IMG/VR virus record: IMGVR_UViG_3300025438_000010
Coordinates: 1-64,000 of that record
DNA: 64,000 bases
Strand: one strand, 5' to 3'
From: a virus
The notes beneath the pieces were generated by a model, which worked only from the letters and a program-made list of their open reading frames with translations, ran no database searches and was not told the DNA's origin. Both the position numbers and the translations under genes were made by a program. Shown here piece by piece: positions 4,818 through 55,355 of this stretch. Position 1 is the first letter of the stretch. Every line of letters starts with the position of its first letter.

Positions 4818-5774
4818 TTAGTACTGAACAGGAGTAAGTGACTTGGATACTACCGACTTAGGCATAATTGCAATGTGGCTAGAGACATCTTCTCTCCCGA
4901 AAGAAATTAAAAAGTCGGTGCCTCGCTCGACTATTCCAGAACAAAACTCCACCCCTGGCTTGTGAAACTGAAAGCCTTTTGATAGAGCTACAATCATTCC
5001 TCTGGCGTCAAACTCGACAAAATAGTGGACATAGTTGCGTAAATAACTGTCTTTGTGTCCGAAGGCTCTCTGGTCCCATACCCTGCTTTGCTCAGCGTAG
5101 GTTCTGTGCATGACTCCAATATAGCCGGACTCTCCCCAGGGGAGCAGATTGCTGCTACCCCGCAAGGTGGATACCTCGGGGTTGTCGGTCATCCAGCTTG
5201 TCACAAGCTCTCCGGTGACCGTCGCGTTGGGGCCATAAATCCAGTCAAAAAAATCAGAGGGTTCATAGAGAGGAGTCATCCAGTTTTTTTCGGGGCGCTG
5301 ATCATCAATCCCGCTAAACTTTGTAAACTCTGTTAGGCAGTTCTTCCTTAGGTCTACTTTTGCTACTGCCATCCGAGCTGCCGGAGTGATGTCTTTCTCC
5401 ATCGTTACACACGAAAAGTACATCTGACCGTCCCTGTAGAAAATTTTAGGGTCCTCCGGCCCTCGCTCGAAGTTCCAGCCTTCAACGGTAGACGTATCAA
5501 TCTGCCTCAAGTTCTTTACTTTTAAATCCTTGGTTAGCTCTGAAAACCAAATGTTGGAGTGGAACTTGTTATCGGGAGTATTAGGGAGGTAAGAACCATT
5601 AGGAGCAATGATGTAGTTACTGGAGCGAAAGGCCACAACCAACCCTTTACGCGGGAAGTAGCCTATAGAGGGGTTAGTAGCTCCCCAGTTTTTATCATCG
5701 GACTTGACCAATCTTAAAAGGTCAACAATATCTCCGCCAAGCTGACGGACAGTAGGATATGCCTTGAGAACCAT
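4818..5774 (-). CDS. five-bladed beta-propeller glycoside hydrolase/transferase-like protein (GH130/GT91-like)
   Basis: NPSI, EDPK, EKNW, LRGS and VEFC motifs. Confidence 0.6.
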   Translation of the reverse strand: MVLKAYPTVRQLGGDIVDLLRLVKSDDKNWGATNPSIGYFPRKGLVVAFRSSNYIIAPNGSYLPNTPDNKFHSNIWFSELTKDLKVKNLRQIDTSTVEGWNFERGPEDPKIFYRDGQMYFSCVTMEKDITPAARMAVAKVDLRKNCLTEFTKFSGIDDQRPEKNWMTPLYEPSDFFDWIYGPNATVTGELVTSWMTDNPEVSTLRGSSNLLPWGESGYIGVMHRTYAEQSRVWDQRAFGHKDSYLRNYVHYFVEFDARGMIVALSKGFQFHKPGVEFCSGIVERGTDFLISFGREDVSSHIAIMPKSVVSKSLTPVQY

Positions 5775-7282: not shown

Positions 7283-7301
7283 TGTACAAGTTTATCATTT
7301 G

Positions 7302-7374
7302 CTGGCTACCCTGGACTCGAACCAGGAACATTTCGGTTAACAGCCGAACGCTCTGCCAATTGAGCTAGTAGCCA
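7302..7374 (-). tRNA. tRNA-Asn(GTT)
   Basis: Cloverleaf: acceptor TGGCTAC/GTAGCCA, anticodon arm TTCGG-CTGTTAA-CCGAA, T-loop TTCGAGT; CCA not encoded. Confidence 0.95.
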
Positions 7375-7378
7375 TTAG

Positions 7379-7452
7379 AGCCTCCTGTCAGATTCGAACT
7401 GACGACTTCCACTTTACAAGAGTGGCACTCTGACCAACTGAGTTAAGGAGGC
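7379..7452 (-). tRNA. tRNA-Thr(TGT)
   Basis: Acceptor GCCTCCT/AGGAGGC, anticodon arm CCACT-CTTGTAA-AGTGG, T-loop TTCGAAT. Confidence 0.95.
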
Positions 7453-7956: not shown

Positions 7957-8694
7957 TTAGTATTTTCCGCCGTTAAGAGCTCTCTGGAGGCCACTGATGG
8001 TCCCACGGCCCCAGATGCCGTCAATTCTCCCTGTATAGAAACCTCTGGACTGAAGGCGCCTCTGAACCGCCCGTCTGGTGTTGGGCCCCATGATTCCGTC
8101 AATCCCGTTCTTGGGGTATCCGTGCTTGACTCCGGAGCGCTGAATGGCACGATAGGTCATAGGACCAGGTCGACCATCGATCATTCCTTCGTAATCCCAA
8201 GCTACTTTAAGTGCGTCTTGCCATGCTTTCCAGGTGTTGCGGTCAAGTCTTCCATGGACCTGAAGCAAGGCCGGGCTCACCGGCGCTGAGATTGTTCCAT
8301 CAATCAGCGGGAGAGGATCCTGGGTGCGTCCCCAAAGCCTTGAGGTCCTTGCTTCGAAGTGAAGATGGTTTCCAGTAGAAGCACCTGTAGTGCCTGCACG
8401 GTAAATAAATTCTCCTGGTCGAACCCGAGCGTTCTTCTTTAAAGGAGTCCGGTGCTCTCCGTGGTAATAAACGGTGTAAAGATTAGATGCATGCTTAATA
8501 ATGACGACATGCCCCCCTCCCTTGGGGGACCAGCCGATGTGGACCACCTTGCCGTCGCCTGCGCTGAGGACATTGAACGATCCACCAAAATCAATACCGT
8601 GGTGCATTTTGCCGAGCTCCCCCGTGATGGGGTGCCTGCGGGGGCCGTAGGGGCTGGTGATAGGGCGTTTGGGGGCGGGATGTGAAAGCTTCAT
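7957..8694 (-). CDS. endolysin: M23 peptidase plus peptidoglycan-binding domains
   Basis: HHGID, YYH, STGNHLHFE; C-terminal DGxxGPxT repeats. Confidence 0.9.
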   Translation of the reverse strand: MKLSHPAPKRPITSPYGPRRHPITGELGKMHHGIDFGGSFNVLSAGDGKVVHIGWSPKGGGHVVIIKHASNLYTVYYHGEHRTPLKKNARVRPGEFIYRAGTTGASTGNHLHFEARTSRLWGRTQDPLPLIDGTISAPVSPALLQVHGRLDRNTWKAWQDALKVAWDYEGMIDGRPGPMTYRAIQRSGVKHGYPKNGIDGIMGPNTRRAVQRRLQSRGFYTGRIDGIWGRGTISGLQRALNGGKY

Positions 8695-9082: not shown

Positions 9083-9110
9083 AAAAGAAAAGCCCTCCAA
9101 AGGGAGGGCT
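9083..9110 (-). terminator. intrinsic terminator between convergent genes
   Basis: AGCCCTCC-N4-GGAGGGCT with U-tract on minus strand. Confidence 0.7.
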
Positions 9111-9155: not shown

Positions 9156-10133
9156 TTAACCCTTAGCGTTGACCTCGTAAGAGGTGTTGGTGGACTCAAA
9201 GAAGTTTACCAACTGCAAGGTGTCGTTTGCCGTGGCCATCCACTTCGCGGGGTTGGACACGTTGTACTGAGCAGGAAGCCCAAGCTCCTCGAAGCGACGG
9301 TCAGCCAAGTACTTCACGTACTGGTTGACGTAATTCGCGTTGAGGCCAAGAATGCCTGAGGGGAACATCTCCTCGTTGTAAGCACACTCCATCTCAACGG
9401 CTTCCTTAATCATTGCAATAACCTCTTCAACAAACTCTTCAGTCGCGACCTCTGGATTTTCCTCCAAGACAGTCAGGATAAGATTGATGCCGAACTTAAG
9501 GTGCAAGGACTCATCACGAACAACCCAGTCGATAAGCGAACCATAGTTCCTGAGGAGGTTGCGCTGACGGAAGCTCAGAGCAACCATGAAGCCTGAGTAG
9601 AACCAGATGCCCTCCATGATGATGTTGTACGCAATAAGGTTACGCAGGAAGTCCTGCTTGCCCTCAACGGTTGTGATGTCCAGGGTCTCCTCAGTCATAC
9701 GCTTGATGAACTTCGTCTGAAACTCTTCCTTACGCGCAATCGTGGCAGACTCGATGTGCTGACCGTAGATTTTTTCACGATCAACGGGGAAGGTTTCGAG
9801 CACATACTCAAAGCTCATGCAGTGGTTGGCTTCTTCCCACATCTGCTTCGCAAGATACAAGTGTGTCTCAGGTGCGTTCACGTACGGGTACACGCCGAAA
9901 GCGAGGGCCTTGTTAACGATGAGCTCCGAAGGGTTGAAGAAAGACATAAGAAACTCAATAGCGTGACGTTCTTCATCCGTCATCTTCTTGAAGTCTGCGA
10001 TGTCCTCGCCCAACTGAATTTCGTTGGGGAACCAGGTGTTAGCAACAGCCTGGTCGTAGAGGTCCATGGCCCACTGATATTTCACGGGCTTGAGAAGGAG
10101 CCCATCCTGAATGCCCGTACCAAGGATTCCCAT
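9156..10133 (-). CDS. nrdB: ribonucleotide reductase class I beta (R2) subunit
   Basis: EEANH, EGIWFYSGF, RDESLH, NFFE..TSY; start moved to MGILGTG (TAATG overlap). Confidence 0.95.
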   Translation of the reverse strand: MGILGTGIQDGLLLKPVKYQWAMDLYDQAVANTWFPNEIQLGEDIADFKKMTDEERHAIEFLMSFFNPSELIVNKALAFGVYPYVNAPETHLYLAKQMWEEANHCMSFEYVLETFPVDREKIYGQHIESATIARKEEFQTKFIKRMTEETLDITTVEGKQDFLRNLIAYNIIMEGIWFYSGFMVALSFRQRNLLRNYGSLIDWVVRDESLHLKFGINLILTVLEENPEVATEEFVEEVIAMIKEAVEMECAYNEEMFPSGILGLNANYVNQYVKYLADRRFEELGLPAQYNVSNPAKWMATANDTLQLVNFFESTNTSYEVNAKG

Positions 10134-10219
10134 TACTGGCAACTTTCGCACATTAGAGCTTCCATTGGATCTACAGGACATGCGTACCCGTCGATTGTTG
10201 TTGTGTTTTCTGGGTCCAT
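10133..10219 (-). CDS. 28-aa peptide resembling the RNR alpha C-terminal CxxC tail
   Basis: MDPENTTTIDGYACPVDPMEALMCESCQ*; GAAAGG SD; in-frame TGA 6 codons upstream; stop overlaps nrdB ATG. Confidence 0.7.
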   Translation of the reverse strand: MDPENTTTIDGYACPVDPMEALMCESCQ

Positions 10220-10382
10220 AGGAAGACCAACCTTTCATGAGAGAAGAAAAAATGAAGAACCTCTAGTATACGCAGTTCGACAAAAGTTCTATAAGGTGCT
10301 AAAAATGTACAATATTGATTTAAAAAGGAAAACTATTATATGGATGTGATAGCCTAAACGGAGTCAGAAAGGAACCAACCCC

Positions 10383-11321
10383 ATGACCCAGACAGATAAA
10401 TCGGAAATAAATAAACTACATAAGTGGCACCCCTATAGAAAACTCCGCAGAGCTTCAAGAGACACGGTCGGAGAAAAATTTAAAAAGTCTAACCACACCT
10501 ACTCGGTTGTTTTATTCACAGGCCTAGCTTTGTTCGCACCAATGCTGGTGGGCCCCCCGGCTGGGGGAGCTAAGCCTCTACCACTAGTCGAATCTTCTAG
10601 AACTGCTCCTTTCGTTGCTGAGCTGCTCTCTGGTGTGGGAGGCCCCGAAATGGTCCCTGTACGAGAAGTGACGACACTTGAAAAAATAACTCTAAAACTT
10701 GAAGAAACAGACTCCCGGTTCGACATCTTCAACGAAAACGAGAAAGGACCAGAGAAAGGACCAGAGGTCACAGTGACGAAGGTCTACAACCATCTCAAGG
10801 TTGCCAACACTGTCATGCCTACAACGAATTCCGAGATCGCCAGTGATTATGGATGGAGGACACCTCCTTGTCGTGGTTGTAGTGCGGACCACAAGGGTGT
10901 TGATTTTGTCCCTGGTTTTGGAAAGCCCATTTTTGCTGTTGCTGATGGGATGGTCATTAAGATGGGGAGCAACGGAGGCTACGGAAACTACGTCAAGCTG
11001 GCACATCTGGTCGCAAACTCTGAGGGTGTCGTAGAAGAGTGGGAGACACTCTACGCACATATGAGAGATGACTCTTTTGTGGAAGGAATGATTGCTGGAT
11101 CTGTTGTGAAGAGCGGTGAGACCATCGGTGAAGTGGGAAACACCGGAATGTCTACAGGACCCCACCTCCACTTCGAGCTGATTATCAACGGAGAGCATGT
11201 GGATCCGCTTCCGCTTCTTGGAACCTACGAAGTGATCATCGTAACCGAGGAAGACTACCCGGACTTTATGTTTGTCGGGGAAACCATTAAAAAAGTAGAG
11301 ACGGTCGTAGCCTACGAATAA
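10383..11321 (+). CDS. membrane-anchored M23 family metallopeptidase
   Basis: TM segment; HKGVD, YAHM, STGPHLHFE. Confidence 0.9.
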   Translation: MTQTDKSEINKLHKWHPYRKLRRASRDTVGEKFKKSNHTYSVVLFTGLALFAPMLVGPPAGGAKPLPLVESSRTAPFVAELLSGVGGPEMVPVREVTTLEKITLKLEETDSRFDIFNENEKGPEKGPEVTVTKVYNHLKVANTVMPTTNSEIASDYGWRTPPCRGCSADHKGVDFVPGFGKPIFAVADGMVIKMGSNGGYGNYVKLAHLVANSEGVVEEWETLYAHMRDDSFVEGMIAGSVVKSGETIGEVGNTGMSTGPHLHFELIINGEHVDPLPLLGTYEVIIVTEEDYPDFMFVGETIKKVETVVAYE

Positions 11322-11334
11322 AGATGTTTAAAAA

Positions 11335-11380
11335 GAAGAAGCCCCGATGAGGAAGGTAAGTAAATCATCGGGGCTTCTTT
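11335..11380. terminator. bidirectional terminator
   Basis: GAAGCCCCGATGA/TCATCGGGGCTTC stem with flanking A/T runs. Confidence 0.75.
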
Positions 11381-11412
11381 ATTGGAGCGGAGAGAGGAGA
11401 ATCCCAAAACCC

Positions 11413-18822: not shown

Positions 18823-19539
18823 ATGAAGCTCAAGCGTTCCAAGGACCGGAAGGTCACCAATCTAGTCACACCGAACGGGAAGGCCCCGTCCATTGCTAAC
18901 ACCTTTGGACTACCAGCAGGTAAGGCCTACTCATGCCCCGGCGCGACGTCCATCTGTGAGAGTGTCTGCTACGCGGGCAAGCTCGAGAAGGTATACAAGA
19001 ACGTCAAGGCGGTCCTGGTACACAACTGGGAACTGCTGAAGGACGCGGATCTCGATGAGATGCGACGACTACTCACTGAGATGGTCGACGACTTCATCAC
19101 GGACTGCAACCGACGGCAAGCGCCTAAGGACTTCAGAATCCACTGGGACGGCGACTTCTTCTCGGACACCTACGCTATGGCGTGGAGGATGACGATGGAG
19201 TCACGGCCCGAGGTCAACTTCTGGGTCTACACCCGGACCATGAGTGCGGCACGGTTGCTCAAAGGCACATCCAATCTGTCCCTGTACTTCTCGGCAGACA
19301 ACGAGAACATGCCGATAGCGCTCACGTTACGGCGTGAAGGGATACTGCTTGCCTACCTGGCGGATACTTTTCAGGAAGGTCAGGCACGGATGAAAGAGGC
19401 AACGGGCAAGCCCGGAGCCAAATGCCCGGAGAACACTAAGCAGATCCCATTGATTAGTGTCAACGGCTCGGCATGCATGGTGTGCCAGCTATGTCCTAAG
19501 GGCAAGGCTGACATCGTATTCAGTGCCAGCAAGTCCTAG
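18823..19539 (+). CDS. Gp88-like protein
   Basis: CPGATSIC..CYA, FRIHWDGDF, WVYTR. Confidence 0.75.
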   Translation: MKLKRSKDRKVTNLVTPNGKAPSIANTFGLPAGKAYSCPGATSICESVCYAGKLEKVYKNVKAVLVHNWELLKDADLDEMRRLLTEMVDDFITDCNRRQAPKDFRIHWDGDFFSDTYAMAWRMTMESRPEVNFWVYTRTMSAARLLKGTSNLSLYFSADNENMPIALTLRREGILLAYLADTFQEGQARMKEATGKPGAKCPENTKQIPLISVNGSACMVCQLCPKGKADIVFSASKS

Positions 19540-29964: not shown

Positions 29965-30423
29965 GTGGCTAATCCAGATACGGACTTACAAGGGGTAGGG
30001 GTCTACTTAGAACAAAGATCCCCTAACAGACTGACCGGAGCTACTCACCAGCTGTTTATTTTTCCGGAGGGCTATACGCCTACACTTCAAAGGATTGTCC
30101 CTAAGGTTTTCCATAGGCATCTCAACAGGTACGCCCCACGGAAGAACTGGATCTGTGCGCCATTACACCTTAACGAGGTTGACTTTTCTGATGAGGAAAC
30201 TGTGGCTGAGTTACTACTACCTCCGCTGGCTCGAGCTGTATGGGGAGAGTACACACTGGTTGGGAAGCCACTACTCTTCGAGGTATCAAAGAAGGACATG
30301 TTCGAGGTTGCTAGGAGAAAACTACCTACGCGGATTAATTTAAAGATAAAGACAATGCGGAGTGCTCACGGCTACCCAGAATCTGTAGTCGAGATCGAGA
30401 AGAAGGAGGAAGCAGATGGTTGA
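29965..30423 (+). CDS. hypothetical protein
   Basis: 152 aa; coupled to the ATPase. Confidence 0.7.
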   Translation: MANPDTDLQGVGVYLEQRSPNRLTGATHQLFIFPEGYTPTLQRIVPKVFHRHLNRYAPRKNWICAPLHLNEVDFSDEETVAELLLPPLARAVWGEYTLVGKPLLFEVSKKDMFEVARRKLPTRINLKIKTMRSAHGYPESVVEIEKKEEADG

Positions 30424-31468
30424 TGTAGCACGGGATGGTGTAGGTAGGTTCCAGGGCCCGGTAAAAGGCTCAAGGGCAGTTACTGAGCTCGAATCATGGG
30501 ACATCTTGGTTGATATCCTTAAACAGAGCTCAGACGAGGCTGTGGCCAAGAGATTACTTGGTGAGGTCCCTGGAGATGGAAGATACATCCCACGGAAGCC
30601 TAAAGGCTCCGGGATGTCACAAAAGGAAAAGAAGTTAATGAATATTGATGCTCTAGAAGGCCACACCAGCTACGAGAGGCCAAATGGGGATCTCTACTAC
30701 AGCAGACCCTGGGGAGCTCACGCGGATGTCGAGGTCCTGAGGAAAGCCAGGGAAGCCACGGCTTCTGGCTCTGGCTCGTCGCTGTTTGCCTTGCTCTATG
30801 GATCACCAGGGTGTGGCAAGACTGCACTGGTCGAAGCGGCGTTCCCGGATGTTTATACGTTGATGGGAACTGGCGACACTGAGGTTGCTGACCTGGTTGG
30901 TGGTTACATCCAGAATGACGATGGTGGCTTCGAGTGGGTTGATGGTGATCTGTTGAAGGCTGCAGAAAATGGAGCTGTCTACTTCATCGACGAGATTGGG
31001 TTGATTGACCCCAAGGTTCTTTCAGTCGTGTACGGGCTGATGGATGGGCGGCGAGAGCTTTCTGTTACTGCCAACCCCCAACGCGGAACCATTAAAGCTC
31101 ATCCCAACTTTTATGTGGTGGCTGCAACAAACCCCAATGCTCCTGGCGTGCGGCTTTCAGAGGCGCTGCTGTCACGCTTCACGATGCAGGCAGAGATGAC
31201 CACGGACTGGGGACTGGCCAAGAAGTTAGGTGCCTCGGTCCGAATCGTCACTGCCGCCCAGAACCTGGCTAAGAAGCAGAGCTCGCGTGAGGTGTCTTGG
31301 GCACCTCAGATGCGAGAGCTCCTGGCGTTCAGGGATGTGTCAGAGCTTTATGGAACTGATTTTGCGATCTCTAATCTCCTGGCTTTGGCTCCAGAGATGG
31401 ATCGTCCAATGGTTGCAGATGTGTTGACCAGGGTCTATGCTGAGGACCACCGACCAGCGAGGATTTAA
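30416..31468 (+). CDS. MoxR/CbbQ/CobS-like AAA+ ATPase
   Basis: Walker A GSPGCGKT, Walker B FIDE, AATNP, ALLSRF. Confidence 0.9.
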   Translation: MVDVARDGVGRFQGPVKGSRAVTELESWDILVDILKQSSDEAVAKRLLGEVPGDGRYIPRKPKGSGMSQKEKKLMNIDALEGHTSYERPNGDLYYSRPWGAHADVEVLRKAREATASGSGSSLFALLYGSPGCGKTALVEAAFPDVYTLMGTGDTEVADLVGGYIQNDDGGFEWVDGDLLKAAENGAVYFIDEIGLIDPKVLSVVYGLMDGRRELSVTANPQRGTIKAHPNFYVVAATNPNAPGVRLSEALLSRFTMQAEMTTDWGLAKKLGASVRIVTAAQNLAKKQSSREVSWAPQMRELLAFRDVSELYGTDFAISNLLALAPEMDRPMVADVLTRVYAEDHRPARI

Positions 31469-31469
31469 G

Positions 31470-33218
31470 ATGGAGCATTTGAGGCACAGTGATCCAGAAG
31501 GGGAGAGCCCTCCGCCCCCGATCGAGTGGCTGAAGGTCGGGACCACTGTTGCTGACCTGACCAATCAGCTCTCTGCCCGGAATGACATCATCGCCCTCGT
31601 CGGGCCTGATGCGGCACATGGTGCGCCAGCCTGCTTCTTCCCCCACCACTCTGAGGTTGAGCTCAACACCAACACAGCTTTTGGGCCCAGAACAGCCCCA
31701 GAGGATGTCGGGGACCTCACTGATCCCAAGAGGCAGTACGAGTTTCCTCGTGCAGTTGGTCTGATTGCCCACGAAGCCTTCCATGCTCGATACAGCAGGT
31801 GGAGTGCGTCTGAAACAGCAGATCAGCTCAATGCGGAGGAGTTCAAGGCCTTCGAGCTGCTGGAGGAGTCACGAATTGAGTATCAGGGGCTTCAGGATGT
31901 CCCACGGGTTCGTGAGTTCATTAGATCGGCTGTGATTGACATTAATCTTGAGCACCGCCCCGAGATGGAGCACACAGAGGCCGCTTTCCAGGTTTTTGGT
32001 TTAATCAATGCACGCGTTCAGGCTGGCACGCTCGAGGAGCGAGAGGTCGAGGATGTTGTGGGCCAAGTCACTGACTTTTTAGGCGCAGAGCTTTCCCTGC
32101 ACTTGTCTGGAATTGTCTCGACGTTCCATGAGTCCAGAGATCTTTCGGAGAGGCACCAGCTGGCTCGTGAGTGGGTCGCTGCAAAGCATGAGGCGGCTGA
32201 TCAGAGAGGGGAGAAGCCTGATGGTGGTTTTGACCCCGCAGCCCTGGCTCAGGCCGTAAAAAATGCGCTAGAAGATATTATCCTTACAGCTAGCATTGCT
32301 TTAGCTGACCAAGAGTCAGACGAGGTAGCCGAAGCTTTCGTGCTTGATGTCCAACAAAAGACAAAGCAGCGTAAGCGCAACGAGCAGGAGGCAGAGAAGC
32401 TGTTCAGCAAAGCTTCGGAGCTTAGCTCAAGCTTCACTCGGTCACACATGAAGCAGATGCGGGATCCAACCCCCGAGGAGCGTGCGGCTGCAGTTATCGT
32501 CGCCACCGAGCTGGAGAAGGCAAAGTACCACGACCGCATTGAGATTGAGACAGACAACTATCTTCCTCCTGGTCGACTTCGCACACGAGCACTTGTCCAA
32601 GCACGGGCAGCTGAGAGCAAGGGCCTCAGGCTGGCAAGCACACCCTGGCGTAGGACCAAGCGCAAGCACACTATCGACCCTTCTCTCACAGTGGGGGTGA
32701 TGGTGGACATCTCTGGCTCTATGTCGAGCGCCATGGAGCCTATGGCAGTGACAGCCTGGGTCATGAGCGAGGCAGTTCGTAGGATTCAGGGGCGAGCGGC
32801 TATGATCTACTATGGCGACTCAGTGTTCCCCACACTCAGCCCTGGGCAGCACCTAGAGAAGGTCTACATCTACGGAGCCTATGATGGCAGCGAGGAGTTT
32901 GACAAGGCTTTTCGTGGGCTAGATGGGGCCCTTGGACTTCTTGAGGGCTCGGGTGCTAGACTGTTAGTGATATCGTCTGATGGACACTATCGGTCTGATC
33001 AGATTGAGCAGGCACGACATTGGATCACAGAGTGCGCCAAAGCCGGGGTTGCGATTCTTTGGTTGCCCTACGACACAGGGCGTAGTCTCAGCAGGCTCCT
33101 GGGCCCTGGTGTGCCCCAACATCATATTTCGGTGGTCACAGGAACTATGTCTCCAGCAGGCGTAGCCACACGCATTGGCCGAGCTGCAGCCGCAGCCCTG
33201 GCTCAGGCAAGTCAATAG
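31470..33218 (+). CDS. vWA domain protein with N-terminal HExxH domain (CobT-like MoxR partner)
   Basis: AHEAFH, LEESRIE; MIDAS DISGS, SDG. Confidence 0.85.
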   Translation: MEHLRHSDPEGESPPPPIEWLKVGTTVADLTNQLSARNDIIALVGPDAAHGAPACFFPHHSEVELNTNTAFGPRTAPEDVGDLTDPKRQYEFPRAVGLIAHEAFHARYSRWSASETADQLNAEEFKAFELLEESRIEYQGLQDVPRVREFIRSAVIDINLEHRPEMEHTEAAFQVFGLINARVQAGTLEEREVEDVVGQVTDFLGAELSLHLSGIVSTFHESRDLSERHQLAREWVAAKHEAADQRGEKPDGGFDPAALAQAVKNALEDIILTASIALADQESDEVAEAFVLDVQQKTKQRKRNEQEAEKLFSKASELSSSFTRSHMKQMRDPTPEERAAAVIVATELEKAKYHDRIEIETDNYLPPGRLRTRALVQARAAESKGLRLASTPWRRTKRKHTIDPSLTVGVMVDISGSMSSAMEPMAVTAWVMSEAVRRIQGRAAMIYYGDSVFPTLSPGQHLEKVYIYGAYDGSEEFDKAFRGLDGALGLLEGSGARLLVISSDGHYRSDQIEQARHWITECAKAGVAILWLPYDTGRSLSRLLGPGVPQHHISVVTGTMSPAGVATRIGRAAAAALAQASQ

Positions 33219-40146: not shown

Positions 40147-41198
40147 TGGCAGACCCAAAAGAGGTATACGCAGCTCTTCACAAGACTGAAGAGCTTCTTG
40201 CCGAGATGCGCAAAGAGGCCCGGGAGCTTTCTACTAAGAAAACGGGAGCAGGAACCCCGGCTCCTAAGAAAGATCGGGTCAAGGGGTCTAAGAAAAACCC
40301 CAAAGGTTCTGCATCCGGGGATAAAAAAATTACTTTTGACGCCAAAACTGAGACAGCCATTAAAAACAAGGTTGAAGAGCACAACAAGACCGCTAAAAAG
40401 GGCCGTAAGGCCACCACAAGGATGCTCAAGGCAGTCTACCGCCGTGGAGCTGGTGCCTACAGTACCTCACACCGCCCCGGAAAGACTCGCAATCAGTGGG
40501 CAATGGCTCGAGTAAACGCTTTCCTCAAGCTTTTGCGCTCTGGAAAGCCCTCCAAGGCTGCTTACACTCAGGATAACGACCTTCTTCCCGCTGCACACCC
40601 TAAGTCTTCAAAGAAAAGCGCTTCTACCCTTACTGCATCGGGGCTGATACCCGAAGAGCAAGCCTTAGCAGATGCTTTGGCGGAGGTTGTAGCAGTCCAC
40701 GGCAAGTTTGACCAAGACGGTGACGGCGTTTGGGCGGGCTACACTCCCGCAAACGAAAACGAAGACGCCGCAATTGGCGTTAAGTGTTCAAACTGCGTTT
40801 TTTACCAAGGCGGAGACCAGTGCGGAATCATCAGTCTCAGTGTTGAACCAGAGGGCAAGTGCCGCTTTGCTGTTTTGCCCGAGGGGGCCGTCCAGGGAGA
40901 CAAAGTCCCCCTTCGAGACCCCGAGTCTCTCGATCTTTTGCTTGCCTCTGCGGACGCTTCCGGCGAGTTGGCCATCTCACTAAAGGACTATTCAGAGTAT
41001 AATTCTGTAGAAGAAACAGTCATCGCTTTAACAGAGGCTTCGGGTATGGGATACGACGCAGAATTTGCCATTAAGGCGGCTTGGATGCGTGCAGTTAGAA
41101 ACGGAGAAGACCCGTTTGAGCGGGCAAAGCAGCTTGCGCTAAACCCCGCTGGTAGCCTTGATGTACACCTTCTTCCTGCAGACTGGGAGGACAGGTAG
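40146..41198 (+). CDS. head-associated multidomain protein
   Basis: basic VYRRGAGAY...QWAMARVNAFL domain plus 4-Cys CSNCVFY domain. Confidence 0.65.
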   Translation: MADPKEVYAALHKTEELLAEMRKEARELSTKKTGAGTPAPKKDRVKGSKKNPKGSASGDKKITFDAKTETAIKNKVEEHNKTAKKGRKATTRMLKAVYRRGAGAYSTSHRPGKTRNQWAMARVNAFLKLLRSGKPSKAAYTQDNDLLPAAHPKSSKKSASTLTASGLIPEEQALADALAEVVAVHGKFDQDGDGVWAGYTPANENEDAAIGVKCSNCVFYQGGDQCGIISLSVEPEGKCRFAVLPEGAVQGDKVPLRDPESLDLLLASADASGELAISLKDYSEYNSVEETVIALTEASGMGYDAEFAIKAAWMRAVRNGEDPFERAKQLALNPAGSLDVHLLPADWEDR

Positions 41199-44100
41199 TG
41201 TCTGATAATATTCCCGTCTCCCCCCTTAACTATCACGGTTCCTTCGAGGACGAGAATAATCAAATTATTGACGCGGCTCTGGAGTTTGCACATGATGCCA
41301 ACCAGGGCTATACGGGCACCCGGGTTGCCACAGACGGAGTAGTTCTCGACGTTGCCAGGCGGACTCTCCGGGAACTAGACAACCATCCTTTCTCTGTTCG
41401 TAAACATCTTACTTTGACAGATGTTTCTCACTTTATTGTTTTGCTTCAGAAAGACAAGGCTGTTACCGCCTCGGTCCAGCACACCGATCTTCTCCCCGTT
41501 GCCCACCCTCGGTCTTCCGCAGAGCACGAGCTGAGTAACCAAGATCTGTTCGCCGCCAAAGCCCGCTGGATTGCCGACGACCCGTCTATTAAAGACGAGG
41601 AAACTCGTGCCATGGTTGCCTCGATGCTTACGGCTCCTGAGGGCTCTGCTGAGCGCGAATATTACGCAACCAGGCTTGAGAACAGCCCCCAGGGGGCTAT
41701 TCCTGTAAGAGCCTTGATTGCGGCGTTTACCGGCGGCCTAGGCGCTAACAAGGGTTACTGGATGCGCCAGCGTCGTGACCGTAAGGGTCGCTTTGCTTTC
41801 GAGGGCGGTGGCCTTAGTGTATTGGTCAAGGGCAGCACAGGTGCTGTTCGCAGGCTGACTGGTCGTACTGTTGGTCCGGGTGTTGGTGAAAAAAATGACT
41901 ATTTTGATATGGAAGTTTCTCCCGGAAGCCTTGTCCGTGTTCCAGCATCTGCAACCGAGTCTTCTAAAGCGTACTTGCCTAGCCCAAACGCCCCGGACGG
42001 ATACAGCCCTCAAAAGGCTCGGGTCCAAGCTGGCGACCCCGTCATCGACGAAAAAGACTTAATTCGTCCTGATGCTCCCAGTGGCTTTAATAAAGTTGCC
42101 GACGGAGCTGATGTCGACTCTCCCGAGGAAAAAGAGTACTATGGCGAAGACGCCGACTTTGGTACAGTGTACGAAGACGAAAATTATACTGTCCGGCAGT
42201 TTGACTCAGGGTCTTCCCCCGTTGCCCGAGACAATTTTAACTTGGCTCAGGAAGCCGAGCAGTCTTGTGGGCTCACCGCAGCCGGTGAGGGCGATAACTG
42301 TCCGATTAAAACTAGTGGCGCTGGTGAAAACGGAAGCTTTGACCCAGAGAAGCCGGTTTTGTTTGTCAGCCGTACAGACGACGCGAGCAATCCTGACATC
42401 TTTGCGGCCTCCCAGAGCTGGGCGGACACCCTAGACTACATTCGTCAGGATGAGCCTCGGTACGAAGCCGAAGATAGACCAGCCCCTTACATCAAACTTG
42501 GTGACCCGAGTAGGCGGGATAACCTTGACCCCACTAGGCGCGAAGAGGGCCCACGCGGCCCCGATAATAGAAGAGTCGATCCACACGGCTTTATTATTCC
42601 GGATAAACCCGGCCTTATTGATGGCGGGGGAAGAGTAAGACCTGACGGAACAAGAGAGTTGCTCGAGGGGCGTCGGCCGGACAGCTATCCGATGCGCATC
42701 CCCCTCCCGGGCCCCTGGAACCCCCGCATTCCCGGCACTGGGCGAAGGCCCCGCCCCGGAGGAGGCCGCGCTCCTGGCGGAGGCGGACGCTCTCCCGGAA
42801 CAGGACGCCGCTGGGGCTCCAACGGCCCTAACGAGGGCCACGCTCCCTACCCAATCCCTGGGCGTCGTGTCTACCCCGGCGAAATTGCGGACATGCGCGT
42901 TGGATCAGAGATGGAGCAATATCTCGGAGGATTCCTTTCGACTCTCTTTGGAACAGCAAAAAAGCGACAGCTACGAAAAACTGGTGCTGACGAGTGGGTT
43001 GACCTGGAGACCGGAGAGACTTACACTAACGATCAAGTCTCAGAGATGGCCGCAACTAGTGGTAAAGATAGTTCTCCTTTTACGGGACTTGCGACAGGAC
43101 CCGAGGTACGCCCCGGAACATTTACTAAAATGATGTCAGGCTCGCTTTTTAGCGAGCTTCCCACCGGCAGTGAGCTTAATGATCACCTAAGACTTTTTAA
43201 CGTTATGACCCAGTTCCGCAAGGTTGGGTATAACCAGTGGCGTCGGTGGGACGGCAAAATCTTTACAGATGCTGAGGTGCAAAAAAAGAGCGGCACTATG
43301 CAGATTGACCGAGTTGGAGAATTTGGTCCTGGTAGACCCCCCGGTGGGGAAGTATCAGGAGAATCCTCTAAACCAAGACTCCCCAGAGGTCCACTGACCC
43401 CCGAAGAGCTGGCCGAGCTTCGCCCCGGATCCCTTATTTCTATACCTGGAGAAGACGATCAACCTCCTCGCTTCTTTGTAAAAGTAGGCGAAAACGACTG
43501 GCGCGAGATTGACCCAGAGAATTTTACGTCAGACCCTGCAGTTTCTTTCACTGATGAAGACATTCTCAACATGGGTAAGGACATTACTCTAGAGAAAGAG
43601 CCAGAGGCCTACGAACAGGGGCAACTAGGCATGCGTCCATCAGATCTTTCTCCTGAGGCCCTGGAAAACCTCCCCGAGGGCACAGTTGTAGGGACTTCAG
43701 ATGAAGAAATTGATAACCTCAACATTCCCCGGCAGCCCTATGCGACTGAAGAGGCGTACCAAGCAGCCCTAGAAGAAGCCAAAGAGTTTTACCGCCGCAA
43801 TAGGTGGCGTAAGCGTGGTCCCAACGAGTGGGTAAATGACTTTGGTGAGTTTGCTACAGACGCAGATATTGCAGACGGAAAGAAAACTCCTGGACTTATT
43901 ATCTCTCTCGGCGATGAGGTTAGCACCCCCGAAGGCTACTACGATTTAAATCGAGAAGAGCTTTACACGCCTACAGGCGGCGCAGAAGGGCAAACCTCAC
44001 CTGACTTCACCGATGACCCCGCAGAGCTGGCTCAACGTTTCTCAGAGGAAGAGCTGCAGGCAGCCCTTAAAGAAGCCCTCGAGAACCCCAACGGTTTTGG

Positions 44101-47100
44101 CTATCTAGAGTTTGCAGAAGGCGACGAGCCGGTGCCTGCAGAAGCACTGTACTATGCCTTGGTTCGTAAGCTCGGTGTCGATGTAGCAGATAAATTTGTC
44201 AGCGTCGTTTATGGTGAAGGGCGAGCCTTTGACGCAGAGACTGAGCTTGCCCGAGAATTCCCCGACATTCTTAGTGATGACCCAGGCAAGCGCCAGGCTG
44301 CTCTTATCGAGGCTTGGAACACCCAATGGGGGCGCTCCAAGTTTGCACTAGATAGAGACGGAAACTTCACTGTTACCGGTAAAGACAATGACAGCATTGC
44401 CACTCAGTATCTGCTCGACAAAATCAGGGCAGAAGAGTGGGGGCAAGAGTTTCTTAACGACTTCCAAGAGGAGTATGGCGAGGTTCTTAATGACCGCACT
44501 AAGGCGGCAATTAAAGATCTTTTCAAGGCTTATCCAGGACTAGAGAGCTCCGACCCCAAAGAGCGTGAAGCCGCAGTACTCAGGGCTCTAGACGATTTAA
44601 TTAGTGACGACGAATATGTTGCTGATGAAGACGGAAACATCGTTGAGGTGAGCCCCAAGACTGCGCTTACTAAACTTTTGTGGGACATGGCTCAAGAGTT
44701 TATTGGTGGAACATCCGCCCCTACTGGTAGAAAAGAAGAAGGAAATCTTCCTTCCGTGATCGAGGGGGCTTCCGAAGAGGAGAAAGCTGAGTTCGATAAA
44801 ACAGGTGACCCCACTCCTTTCCTCCCTAAAGACAACCCCGAGTCCTTTGAAAACGTGTGGAACAACTACTACAACCCACTTCCCGAGCCTTATGACCCCA
44901 AAGACGGTCCTGACCAGATCAATCCGGTAAATCTTGCTCGTAAATTCACCCCTGATCAGCTGAAAGAGCAGCTTCGCGAGGCCATTCTTGATGGGAGTGG
45001 TTACGGTGTCGTTGCTTTCGAGGGCCCCTCCGGCGAGCCCATTGAGTTCCGAGTCCCAGCCGAAGCGCTGAGGGATGCACTGCAGCTTCAGGGCGAGGAT
45101 GCAAACGCCTTTATTCAAGATATTTTTAACGAAAACCTTTCACCAGCCAAGCAGGTTCAAAAACTTATTGACGAAATTGCTGACCTTAAAGCTAGGCGTG
45201 ATGCGGAGACAAACTCCACGGAGAAGGGCAAACTTACTCGACAGATTAACAAGAAGACCGCTGAGATCGGGATGCGCTATAAGGCTATTGTGGCTCTTAA
45301 AAAGCGCGAGGCCCAGCTAGACCGTCTATCCAAGCAGAGCAGCTTGTCTGACGAAGAGCGCCAGCAGGTTCTGGACAAACTTGAGCAGGTTCGAGCACGT
45401 CGGGAGCAAGAAGAAGGCATCTTCAATGGAGACCTAGAGCAGGGCGAAAGCATGACCCCGTTCGAGGAAAATGTAGATGCTGAGCTTGAGAAGTTTGACT
45501 TTGAGCAGGCCTCTACTCGTACGCCAGTCGAGCCCCCTGCAGCTGAATCTCCTGAAACGGTAGAAAAGGATAAGCCTAAGCCCGTTGTCTCCTACAAGAG
45601 GGTAGGCAACAAAGTATTCATCAGACAGCGGACTGGTCGCGTTATCACCAACAACCCTGAGTTTAAAGAGTTTATTAAGGAAAACGGTTTTGTCTACGAC
45701 TCTAAAGTAGACAAGGTGTTTGAAATTTCTGAAATGGATGACACTGAATTTAACGAATTTATGCGTACCGTTCGTGACCGGTTCGGTATTAGTCTTGAGC
45801 CCGAGAAGGGTCAAGAAGCCATTGACTTTGATGCCTCGCCTTCACCTACTCCTCGCCCCGTGCCCAGCCCAGCTGAGTTTGGAAAGTCCCCCAATAGTGC
45901 GTCTATTATCGAGTCTCTTCAGCGCCGAATTGCGGATATTCAAGAATTTGTTAGAAAAAAAGTTGTCCCACTTCTGCGCTCCGATAAAAGTGACGAGAGC
46001 CGGCAGGGACAGCAGCTTAATCGCAGAGCAGAGAACATTACTCGTAAGCTTAAGAATCGGATTAGTCGTCATCAAGATGAGGCACCAGTCGGCAAGGATG
46101 CTCGTGACCCCCGTGTCCTCAACATCCGCCCTACGGACTACCAAGTAGGGGATGTCTTTGTAGACGATTTGTTCACTGTTGATCGAATTGAAGTATCAGA
46201 GCCCATCACAGACCGGCAAAGTCCCTACTTTGGTGAGCGCGAAATTGTCTACTTCGGGCACTACCCGGGTGGCGTGGAGCAAATGAAAAAGCGCCCGGAG
46301 AACTTCAGAACCGATGGAGTTTACCGAGGCTTAGGGTCACCTGCTGGGGGGGACCTGCCCGCCCTGAATTCTCCCAAGGGTGAGGAGTATCTCCCCGAGG
46401 CAGCTCGTAATCAGCCTAGAGGAAATCTGGAGCAGATTGAGCGAGAGCCTCTTGACGGCCGCGAGAGACGGAATCTTTATGGTCCTAAGCAAAGAGACTT
46501 CCCCGAAGAACACGACAAATTCCTTAGAGACTATGAAAAGTACGAAGCTGACCTAGCGGAAAGAAGGGCTAGCTGGTCTCCCCCGGCTCCTTCTGGTGAA
46601 ACACGACCCACCACTACATCAGAAGGCCAAGGAGCTCCAACTCCTGGTCCTCGCCCCAAGATTGTAACCGGGTCTGACGAAGCTCAAAACTTGAAGCCCG
46701 GGGATATTACATACAGGGAAAACCCAGACGGCTCTCTTGAGTTTTTTGTTGTCCAAACTGTTGAAAACCGTAAGGTAAAGACCGGGACTAAGACTGTTAC
46801 GCAGGAGGCCCCCGAAGCCCCTCAGGTCGTAGACACTGAGACGGCCCAATCGGCTCTTGACGAGGCCGTCAGGCGCTACCCCGAGCTGGGGGAGGATGAT
46901 CCGGCTAGACGGAAACGTGCGTACGCCAAACTTATCGGAGAGTTTTACGCAGAGGCCCAGCAGGCTGGAGAAGCCCGTAAAGAAGGTAAAGACTATGTTC
47001 CACTGGAGGGCCCTTTAGGAGAGCGCTTTGGTTGGCTGCTTAGTCAGCGAGAACGAGTTGTCGCAGGTGAGCCCCTTAGTGTAGAAGAAGTGGTTCCAGG

Positions 47101-50100
47101 CGAGCCTCGAGAAATTGAAGAAGATGTTTTCGAAGAAAAAACATTTGTAACTGGTTACCACCCAGGGCACGAAATTCAAGAAAAGTCTTGGAGCCCCCAG
47201 ACTACTATTAATTACGTCAGAGGTGAGACTGGTCTTCCCCCGGCTGGGGATAAGCCAGCTGTTCCCGGAAAAACAGATATCTACGCTTCTACTTCCAACA
47301 AAGCGGAGCGTGCGAGGCTCCTAGCAGAGAGAGAATCCACCCTTTCTGAGTCATCAAAGCTCTACGCTCTTGACTCTGCTGCTAAAGTCAACGCTGTCCC
47401 GAGTAAAGTTAAAAACCCCAATAGTTTTGTGATGATTGGAAAGTTTGTTCCGGCTTTCTTTGGGAAAAAGATTTTGGACCTTGTCCGTGGTAAGACTGGC
47501 AAGGAAATTAAAGAAGAGCTGAAGAGCAAGAGGGTTGTGTTCCTTGACTTTGAAAGTGTTGGTAAGGGATTTGATAGACGAAACCCAGATGCCCCAATTC
47601 AGGTCGCGGCGGTTGTCTACGAAAACGGTCAAGAAACTGGTCGTAAGGTTCTCTTTATCAACCCCGGTGAGCGCCTTGGCGGGTATTACTACGAGGCCTA
47701 CCCTAAGAAAGACCAAGATGCTGCTCCTGGTGATGTCACCCCCGGAAAACTGCCAGACGGCTCACGTGTAGGACAAATTGTTGGCGATGAGCTTATTACC
47801 TACACAAGGCAGGGAGCGCGTTGGGTTAATGATGCCAACTCCGAGGATGTTTTAAACACAACCCAGCTAAAAACCCGCTCTTCTGAAACTCTAAAGCTAA
47901 ACGAAGAAGGACAGCCCACTCTAAGAGGTAATCGTCTTCGTGATTCTGACGGTAATCCCATCACTGATGAGTTTTTGTCCTCGCAAAAGGGACTCGAGGA
48001 GTCCTTCCGCGAGCTGATTGACTTTATCGGGGAAGATGCATACCTCTCCGCTTTTAACGCCGATTTCGACATTAATTTATTGGATAGTTTTGCGGAGCGT
48101 TTAGGGCTTGACTTCCGCAGTGACGGGTTTATCGACCCTCTAGCCCTGGCCCGGGCCCTCAATCCAGATGACTCTGTCCCCAACAACCTTCCCTCGGTCG
48201 CAACCAGATACGGGATTATTAGGGACCCAGATGACTGGCACAACGCTGAGATTGACGTTGAGGTTCTTCCAGATCTTCTGGACAAAATGCTTGATGAAGT
48301 AACCCCCGACAACTCTGTTCTTGACGCAGACAAAAGAGCAGCCGAGTATGAGAACGGGATTCGCAGATATTTTGAACAGCTAGACCAGTGGGAGGCCCAA
48401 GAGGGGATTACACCTAGGTCGCCCGCGCCGGTAGAAGCCCAAGAGGAGCCTACACCTACACCTACACCTACACCTGCTCCTGCTCCTGCGCCTCAGGGCG
48501 AAGACACCTCTTCAGATCAAGAAATTGATGCTATGGGGATCGGGGCCAACCCTCGCTCTATATTTGGTGACACAATAAATGAAGAGTGGATTGCAGACGA
48601 AGAAAACACTATCGTTGTGGCCAATAGTGCTAGCAATGTCAGAGACCTGCGGATTGGTGACTTTTTCGGAGATCAAAACGGAGAGTACAACGAGCTTCTT
48701 GTAGTAGAGACAGATCCCATCACCGGCAGGGAGACATTTACTTACCGAAATGTCAACACAGGAGAGATTTTTAGGGCTTTTGGGGCTCCAGGGTCTCAGG
48801 CGCGGGTGGGTACAGATCAAATGCCTTTGCGCAGGCGATCCGAACTAGACGGGCTGAGTAACGCTGAAATTCTAGGTCTTTTAAATAATCGCGCACGTAG
48901 AGACTCTCTAAATATGGCCGTCCCTGAGGTTCAATTTGAAGACGGGGCAAGTAGGGCTGTTTCTAAAGCTATTGACGACTTTATTAACGAAGGTCGTGGA
49001 GACGCCTCCGTCTCGGACGGCTTGCCTGCTCGCGAGACAAGTGCCATGCACACCGATAAAAACGGATTTGCTCTTGCCGTAGACGACCTTGTCTATAACC
49101 CTAAGACAGGTACTACACATAAAGTAACCCAAACTTACCCAACGTACTCTAAAAATGAATACGTTAACTACGTTCGAATAAGTTTTATTAATTCCAAAGG
49201 CCAGGCCGACTCTAAGCCTATGGCGTCCGACAAACTTGAACTGATCAATCCCCCTGCTCAGGAAGAGGCCCTTTCGCCTCTGTCAGATGTTTTTGGCGAG
49301 CAGGTCGTTATCGGAGGTAAGAAAGAAAAGCCTAGAGATCCAATTTTAATTGCTCGCACAATAGAGCGACTTATGGGCTACCTGAACCCCGGGCCAGGAT
49401 ATATTCGTCCGATTGGCAATGCCATTAAGGCGGCTATTAAAGCCTATAGAAATAATGATTTTGCATCTGCTGAACGCTTTGCGGGGGCGGCAGTAGACTA
49501 CGCTGACTCCATAGAAGCCCCAAAAATCACTGTTGAAGACATCAAAAACCAGGTTGCTGACAGAGCAAGAGGTCTTGCTGGCCTGATTCAGCTGCCTGAG
49601 ACAGGTCCTGCACCCAGGGAGGCCTTTGCTGAAGCCGTTGGTCTGTACAACACCGGGAAGTATGCCCAGGCTCGCAGGAAGCTTGACACGGTGGAAGATC
49701 TACTCTGGAACGAGGCAGAAGAAGCTCGTCAATCTGCAGGTCGCTCACCGCAAACTGCTGTTAAAAAGTTTATTGATGGAGTTGGAGAACTAGAATCTGC
49801 GATTGATGCTCCCCTAACCAGAGAATATTTTGCTCGGCTACTCCGAGATGCTCAACGCAAAGACTATGATTTTGAAAATAAAGAGGGGATTATTCAAGAG
49901 GCACTTCAAGCCATTAGAGACGGATTTATTATCCCCGGATATCAAGTTCTTGAAAGACTTGCTCGCACCAGAGAACGCCAGCTTGATCAAAAAAATCCAA
50001 AGCGGAGAAAGCTTGGAGAAGAAAGCTATACTCAGCGGCTCACAGCTGAGATTAACTCTGACGTTGCTGAGAAGCCGGGGTCCTCTGCAGATGAATTAGC

Positions 50101-55070: not shown

Positions 55071-55355
55071 GTGAGTGATTCTCCTGAAGAAAAATTAACA
55101 GATCATATGTACATTATTTATGACGCTCCCACGGGTCAAGTCACCCAGGTTAAGTACGAAACAGCTGCGCACGGGCTGTGGACCAGAATTCAAGGGGAGT
55201 GGCGGGAATTAGCTTTAGAAGATGAGAGCGAAGATTTTATGGAGCGCAGAGAAATTGCTGGAAAAAACTACCTAGAAACTCGTGACTATTTTGACGACCA
55301 AACCGAGCAAAAGATACTTACCTACGAGCCAGAGTACAGGATGTGGTTTGCTTAA
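55071..55355 (+). CDS. hypothetical protein
   Basis: 94 aa; AAGGAG upstream. Confidence 0.6.
   Translation: MSDSPEEKLTDHMYIIYDAPTGQVTQVKYETAAHGLWTRIQGEWRELALEDESEDFMERREIAGKNYLETRDYFDDQTEQKILTYEPEYRMWFA

Follow-up and report, generated by a model that had tools for sequence, protein, structure and literature searches.

The stretch analysed here, hereafter the window, corresponds to the opening 64 kb of an IMG/VR virus record of 75.6 kb, the completeness of which is estimated by CheckV at about 57%. On the minus strand of the window lies an open reading frame (ORF) of 28 aa (10219..10133, stop codon included) with the translation MDPENTTTIDGYACPVDPMEALMCESCQ, directly followed by nrdB (10136..9156, minus strand), which encodes a 326-aa class I ribonucleotide reductase (RNR) small subunit (PF00268, E 8e-76). 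The stop codon TAA of this micro-ORF and the start codon of nrdB share the sequence TAATG (10137-10133). A terminator-like hairpin (9091..9110, minus strand) is located 3' of nrdB, with an 8-pair stem containing 6 G-C pairs that is followed by the T-run TTTCTTTT. Because of the TAATG overlap and the hairpin closing nrdB, the micro-ORF and nrdB are therefore regarded as a small two-gene unit, and are predicted to be co-transcribed and translationally coupled.

An in-frame TGA closes the frame of the micro-ORF 5 codons upstream of its ATG. The only candidate ribosome-binding site is the purine-rich GAAAGG (10231..10236, minus strand), a weak Shine-Dalgarno-like sequence placed rather far away, 11 nt 5' of the ATG. 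Better sites are found in the relatives described below, in which AGGAG, GGAGG or AAGGAG precedes the ATG of the micro-ORF; in L002 and L005, for example, AGGAGAA is located only 4-5 nt from it. A 163-nt intergenic region (10220..10382, minus strand) separates the micro-ORF from a divergent M23 peptidase gene (10383-11321, plus strand) and presumably holds the promoter of the unit. A promoter consensus scan of this region gave only a weak plus-strand site and identified no promoter, and neither an NrdR-box-like palindrome nor an Rfam family was found in it. Salt-lake Logan contigs from three public runs span positions 10078-11400 with 0-1 differences, so the micro-ORF and its upstream region are not an assembly artefact. 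The only RNA runs found contained about 4% of the sampled words, and one of them gave no contig over the stretch. Thus, most of what the first-pass annotation had read at this locus is indeed present, namely a free-standing 28-aa gene whose start codon is conserved in relatives and whose pN is far below pS, an in-frame stop just upstream and the TAATG overlap with nrdB; the claimed Shine-Dalgarno sequence of its own does exist, but it is weak.

The longest ORF in the nrdB frame of the window (9156-10238, minus strand) has 360 aa and starts at an ATG at 10238, which adds 34 low-complexity residues (MKGWSSYGPRKHNNNRR...) ahead of NrdB. This longer ORF overlaps the micro-ORF in another frame and would mask it. 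As NrdB begins at MGI or MAI in every relative, 10136 is considered to be the true nrdB start.

The other side of the unit is flanked by a second M23 peptidase gene, which carries a peptidoglycan-binding domain (7957-8694, minus strand). Elsewhere in the window we noted adjacent tRNA-Asn(GTT) and tRNA-Thr(TGT) genes (7301-7452, minus strand), a GP88-family protein (18823-19539), an AAA_5 ATPase with a weakly VWA-like partner (30416-33218) and two giant ORFs of 4527 aa (41198-54781) and 1600 aa (55343-60145), both on the plus strand. The window and the 75.6-kb record as a whole gave neither a PF02867 match nor a match to a class-II-like alpha, in agreement with the earlier statement that no nrdA is adjacent or present in the window. 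Since CheckV rates the record as 57% complete, an alpha gene may still be present in the missing part of the phage genome. Thioredoxin and glutaredoxin families were not found in the phage record either, and cultured phages gave no match to the nrdB region at the nucleotide level.

With its own ATG, the upstream in-frame stop and an alpha gene neither adjacent nor in the record, the micro-ORF is not covalently part of an RNR alpha. Its C-terminal part reads ACPVDPMEALMCESCQ and closes with C24-E-S-C27-Q28-stop, so that the cysteine pair lies within the last ~10 residues, as in the tail of class I alpha subunits. Scans of Pfam, NCBIfam and PHROG with six family members (E up to 10) yielded noise only and no family match, and a PDB profile search with the peptide gave no sequence match.

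We collected 33 viral loci through NrdB, and 17 of them carry the micro-ORF. All 17 copies have a start codon, and a Shine-Dalgarno-like site precedes most of them. Its position is varied. It overlaps nrdB in L001-L003 and L005, lies just 5' of it in L004, L008 and L012, about 1 kb upstream in L011, L014 and L030, and 3.4 kb upstream, ahead of nrdA, in L009, L026 and L027; in L018 it is found just downstream of nrdB, and in L016 and L017 5 kb downstream. The start codon and the N-terminus (MDPE/MNEE) are kept in L001-L005. Over the last 20 codons of the window ORF, comparison with L001-L005 gave a pN of 0.05-0.09 and a pS of 0.8-1.3. Purifying selection on the peptide is strong. Because the ORF is start-conserved in 17 of 33 relatives selected by nrdB and its pN is far below pS, it is far beyond chance.

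The family can be described as ORFs of 20-35 aa ending in [YF]xVPxDPM[DE]xLxC[DE]SCQ and a stop codon. D17, P18, M19, C24, C27 and Q28 are invariant in two family alignments (A1 and A2), although the invariance of the cysteines is partly imposed, the members having been found by a pattern that requires those residues. When IMG/VR was scanned with a degenerate DNA pattern for DPM[DE]xxxC[DE]xCQ-stop, at least 120 loci were obtained, and all of the 120 matches listed are short ORFs, typically of 22-32 aa, none of which ends a long gene. From 1.84 billion representative proteins, a profile of 74 members retrieved 488 clusters at an E-value of 0.001 or below; nearly all of the best 150 clusters are 25-112 aa long and carry the motif C-terminally. 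Standard gene callers had been expected to miss the micro-ORF, and in the window the 360-aa frame does mask it, but the 488 clusters mean that many members have been called publicly.

Two further observations were made among the viral relatives. A 315-aa ORF (L009:2592-3539; at about 5055-5987 in L011, L014 and L030) gives no Pfam match and by eye resembles a Hint/LAGLIDADG-like homing endonuclease. In several relatives it separates the micro-ORF from nrdA or from nrdB, and it could represent a mobile element located at the point of the split or close to it. In addition, a 687-aa class-II-like alpha with PF17975 and PF21995 and its own CTTDAC end is encoded at L035:490-2553, in the same record as L005 (G001); this relative thus has a class-II-like alpha with a CxxxxC tail of its own beside nrdB and the micro-ORF.

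In most class I alphas, the active site is reported to be reduced by a CXXC at the C-terminus (PMC9669993). We examined the NrdA proteins of the relatives with respect to this tail. The NrdA of L009 is complete at 805 aa, with ATP-cone, all-alpha and barrel domains, the catalytic residues C230, C444 and C459 and the tyrosine pair YY 762-763, and it ends in ...KKGFGFASAKN without cysteine. The phage NrdAs of L006, L009, L026 and L027 are all tail-less, without terminal cysteines. Hence, the suggestion that a phage nrdA found elsewhere might lack its C-terminal cysteines holds for the NrdA of these relatives. The best 120 homologues of the L009 NrdA, including those of Aurantimicrobium minutum, Alpinimonas psychrophila and Pontimonas salivibrio, likewise all have KKGFGF-type ends without cysteines.

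The same DNA pattern was then applied to one genome per prokaryote species, and at least 120 loci were found, mostly in Microbacteriaceae. At 58 of the prokaryote loci listed, the motif is flanked by nrdA and nrdB or adjoins one of the two genes. We sorted the 56 listed loci with a usable NrdA match into fused and split states. At 17 of the 56, the motif forms the in-frame end of NrdA, ...ACPVDPMERLQCESCQ, directly 5' of nrdB; these fused tails belong to Demequina, Nakamurella, a gammaproteobacterial MAG, Saccharibacteria and Paceibacterota, a further example being ...VGGVACPVDPMERLQCESCQ. At the other 39, mostly from Microbacteriaceae, NrdA stops at RRGFGG... and a separate short ORF with the motif follows. 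An ATG within range gives a peptide of 21-39 aa at 32 of these 39 split loci, often overlapping the nrdA stop. In Demequina and Nakamurella, the tail motif ACP[VI]DPME.LQC[DE]SCQ stands at the very C-terminus of NrdA, and 16 of the last 20 residues of the window peptide are identical to the fused tail of Demequina L193, VGGVACPVDPMEALQCESCQ. The nrdA gene and the micro-ORF of Microbacteriaceae jointly cover the one ORF of the fused NrdA taxa, at the same operon position. As judged from this motif and its placement, the peptide and the CxxC tail at the C-terminus of one class I NrdA clade are homologous, and the earlier view that it represents the redox CxxC tail of an RNR alpha is supported, the same motif ending full-length NrdA at 17 bacterial loci. 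It should be further pointed out that NrdA proteins of this clade (P0004-P0123; fused NrdA in L210) have one or two (K/R)(K/R)GFG(F/G) motifs in a C-terminal extension, in split and fused forms alike.

Because 32 of the 39 split loci have the micro-ORF in the -1 frame, we considered a frameshift or readthrough that would join the bacterial micro-ORF to NrdA. It was rejected as the main reading. At lower G+C, the frame of the micro-ORF is closed by a stop a few nt upstream of the start codon; this ATG shares bases with the nrdA stop (TGATG/TAATG), which is the usual layout of translational coupling; and the phage micro-ORFs are far from any nrdA. As to public annotation, three bacterial family members of 26-28 aa (NCBI HAA79333.1, TXK20019.1 and OJX69781.1; P0129, P0157 and P0179) bear the apparently mistaken name 'ribonucleotide-diphosphate reductase subunit beta'.

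Among 151 Microbacteriaceae species genomes, 72 have the motif, usually in two copies, and the control matches were zero. The motif is present in 71 of 71 genomes with a close homologue of the window NrdB and in 1 of 80 without one, counts that overstate the number of independent events because the genomes are related to one another. The co-occurrence profile of motif and NrdB is nearly perfect. The second bacterial copy is found on its own, in most cases with a MaoC/FAS1-type dehydratase pair and murB downstream of it. The stand-alone copy of Leifsonia poae (L167:4090-4300), for instance, has an NrdR-box-like palindrome, a strong Shine-Dalgarno sequence and its own terminator. Such a palindrome, e.g. 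ACACTACATGTAGTGG, is found 100-240 nt upstream of 41 of the 62 listed stand-alone bacterial copies, compared with 4 of 575 random windows. The same type of box occurs 5' of nrdA, several times paired with a spacing of 32 bp. The most conserved positions of NrdR boxes are C4, A6, A8, T9, T11 and G13 (PMC13584703); the palindrome carries all of these, and it is called NrdR-box-like by sequence. No such palindrome was found upstream of the phage copies among 136 viral loci.

The comparison thus shows, at the level of sequence, an NrdA clade of Microbacteriaceae and phages that is without its tail and has the micro-ORF instead, either in the nrdA-nrdB operon or alone behind NrdR-box-like sites. 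The split RNR proposed in the first-pass annotation is supported by this comparative genomics, but it is no peculiarity of the phage; the split is a property of Microbacteriaceae, the likely host family.

The window NrdB shares 95-96% protein identity and 85% nucleotide identity with its counterpart in genome G039, compared with about 80% identity to other Microbacteriaceae NrdB proteins. The NrdA tail of G039 is identical to that of the Pontimonas salivibrio protein P0082, and G039 was taken as Pontimonas salivibrio. The operon of this species reads nrdA...GGE-TGATG-MNPTQTPTHEDYLVPVDPMDLLQCESCQ, followed by an 86-nt spacer and nrdB, and its NrdA is tail-less. The window sequence itself comes from salt-lake metagenomes. 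A Pontimonas-like host with a tail-less NrdA is the simplest assumption in view of the NrdB identity, the split operon and the salt-lake source, and the Pontimonas lineage is accordingly the likely host. As no alpha was found in the 75.6-kb record, the alpha served by the window peptide is probably the host's own.

Most viral copies lie away from RNR genes. Only 3 of the 120 listed motif-selected viral loci have RNR genes in reach (~8 kb), and 117 have none. The commonest neighbours at these 120 loci are an M23 peptidase (48) and an r1t-type holin directly upstream (31); at 25-26 of them, the micro-ORF has TerL upstream and portal downstream. Moreover, three complete cultured phages, phiPsal1, CN1A and Pan2, carry the micro-ORF and have neither RNR alpha nor beta. 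The copy in Pontimonas phage phiPsal1, MSDPFDAIDRVDGIDVPIDPMDLLQCTSCQ, overlaps the holin stop and is unannotated, as is that of Clavibacter phage CN1A, MNNDNEYTVPIDPMDELICEGCQ. Pseudanabaena cyanophage Pan2 has a variant copy, MDDFDTIDGFACPNDPADLVSCESCQ (L156:4987-5067), and the annotated CDS Pan2_27 (locus 4990-5073) lies in another frame than the conserved micro-ORF. We read these loci as suggesting that phages captured the micro-gene repeatedly, as an accessory gene at module boundaries that would serve a host enzyme. The carrier phages without RNR genes fit an auxiliary role for the host RNR and equally allow another target.

Taken together, the 28-aa ORF is probably a functional micro-gene that encodes the cysteine-pair tail of class Ia NrdA as a trans-acting dithiol shuttle for a tail-less NrdA. 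The CxxC pair of the peptide would reduce the active-site disulfide of the tail-less NrdA after each turnover (C230/C459, phage L009 numbering), with the conserved VPxDPM[DE]xL stretch docking the peptide, and the oxidised peptide would be re-reduced by the host thioredoxin or glutaredoxin system. The phage would thereby supply the peptide and a host-like NrdB, the partner most likely being the tail-less host NrdA, and raise the dNTP supply during infection. The case for such a trans-acting reductant shuttle is drawn from comparative genomics. Action in trans is chemically plausible because, in work on yeast Rnr1, the CX2C tail of one alpha can reportedly regenerate the active site of a neighbouring alpha. 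A predicted complex of the L009 NrdA (residues 145-805) with its 31-aa peptide gave a score of 0.25, the mark being 0.32, a result that speaks neither for nor against binding. Some observations weigh against the shuttle reading, namely the missing alpha in the 75.6-kb record, the scarcity of RNR genes near the listed viral copies and the class-II-like alpha of G001 with its own cysteine tail.

Other readings of the peptide were also weighed. Its target in infection might be unrelated to RNR, such as a lysis-tied redox or metal-binding regulator, in which case it would be an NrdA tail by descent only. The main support for this comes from the phage loci, with the micro-ORF in three complete phages without any RNR gene and the commonest listed viral neighbours (M23 peptidase with 48 of 120, r1t-type holin with 31 and TerL/portal with 25-26), to which may be added the overlap of the phiPsal1 ORF with the holin stop and the two M23 peptidase genes flanking the unit in the window. 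However, the motif stays identical to the NrdA tail, terminal CxxCQ included, and its occurrence in bacteria follows that of the RNR operon almost without exception, behind NrdR-box-like sites. Lysis-cassette ends and the terminase-portal gap are the usual spots for inserted accessory genes, so a lysis or terminase neighbourhood says little, and we consider a target outside RNR unlikely. We think it quite improbable that the peptide is a decoy, which would compete with the host tail peptide or soak up thioredoxin and thus inhibit or redirect the host RNR. It is conceivable that a small mimic of the tail would obstruct the entrance to the active site, and the window peptide differs from the Pontimonas operon copy at about half of its residues; yet neither cysteine has been lost and the docking stretch is complete, as one would expect of a working shuttle. 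Phages without an RNR of their own would gain nothing by blocking dNTP synthesis, and the window peptide is coupled to nrdB, which should raise RNR capacity.

Two readings in which the peptide itself would have no function fare worse against the conservation data. If the ORF were a cis-acting leader, only its translation would matter, loading ribosomes onto nrdB via TAATG, and both this overlap and the nrdB Shine-Dalgarno sequence located inside the micro-ORF are in keeping with such a role. It is nevertheless very improbable, as the amino-acid sequence is under strong purifying selection, the position is not fixed (the ORF of relatives lies 1-5 kb from nrdB or downstream of it) and most phages are without nrdB near the micro-ORF. 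The idea that it is a deletion scar, i.e. the functionless last codons of a lost nrdA, is scarcely credible. The micro-ORF does occupy the position of the nrdA end in relatives with nrdA directly before nrdB (L009, L027). But its start codon and N-terminus are retained in L001-L005, synonymous sites are saturated with a pN of only 0.05-0.09, and relatives with an intact nrdA still keep the separate ORF, their nrdA being without the tail. The first-pass annotation had named a scar as what would overturn its proposal, should relatives carry this sequence solely at the end of an intact nrdA and the start not be conserved. Neither is the case, and the related nrdB loci to which it pointed carry the micro-ORF in 17 of 33 instances, at varied positions.

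Compared with known systems, the trans-acting tail peptide is closest to the fused NrdA tails of Demequina and Nakamurella, with which it shares the motif, the position directly before nrdB and presumably the disulfide-reducing job. It differs from them in being a separate 28-aa polypeptide with its own start, and the long low-complexity linker of the fused forms is absent. In the class II NrdJa/NrdJb enzymes of the Pseudomonas type, the barrel and the cysteine-bearing C-terminal part are located on two polypeptides (PMC9669993). The division of catalytic barrel and cysteine-bearing part between two chains is alike in the two systems. However, NrdJb is folded, with IscU-like and zinc-finger domains, and belongs to class II, whereas the micro-protein has about 25 aa and belongs to class I. 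To our knowledge, NrdJb does not occur as a stand-alone phage gene without alpha.

The nrdA of Aeromonas phage Aeh1 is split by the mobE homing endonuclease gene into NrdA-a and NrdA-b, pieces that must assemble (PMC3045599). Here too a phage class I alpha would be in two pieces, and the Hint/LAGLIDADG-like ORF adjoins the micro-ORF in some relatives. In Aeh1, however, the catalytic body is cut into two large fragments, whereas in the present case the flexible tail alone is separate, the split is common to the host family and the window is without any alpha piece. A survey of phage RNR genes reported two phages with nrdB but no nrdA (PMC3653736). These likewise have nrdB without nrdA, and the survey reports no tail micro-ORF alongside. 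NrdH-redoxin and glutaredoxin, whose genes are often located in nrd operons, are likewise small proteins with a CxxC and deliver electrons to RNR. They differ from the micro-protein in being thioredoxin-fold proteins of about 75-100 aa that reduce the tail, whereas the micro-protein is the tail itself. A redoxin fold comprises about 75-110 aa, with the CxxC at a helix N-terminus; with 28 aa and no Pfam, NCBIfam or PHROG match, it lacks the fold and the size of a redoxin. Neither the motif strings nor a split tail in class I led to a relevant paper in the literature library searched.

Several annotations can be corrected in the light of these results, namely the 'subunit beta' names, the frame of the Pan2 gene, the unannotated copies in phiPsal1 and CN1A and the possible over-extension of nrdB across the micro-ORF. 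Judging from the loci collected, the phenomenon is much more general than the window phage, with a family in the likely host lineage and in many other phages. With confidence only slightly on the positive side, we propose that much of Microbacteriaceae has a class Ia RNR built from three polypeptides, its redox tail being a diffusible micro-protein of about 25 aa made from an operon copy and an NrdR-controlled stand-alone copy, and that phages carry the tail gene alone, speeding up the turnover of the host RNR even without an RNR of their own. The tethered cysteine tail has been taken as a fixed part of class I alpha. If the proposal is true, a natural diffusible tail would mean that tethering is dispensable, the re-reduction step would be open to clean study with synthetic peptides, and the turnover of tail-less NrdA proteins would be explained. 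A gene of about 25 aa would then join the auxiliary metabolic genes as one of the smallest, and phages with nrdB only would be explained as well, the phage giving beta and the shuttle, and the host giving alpha.
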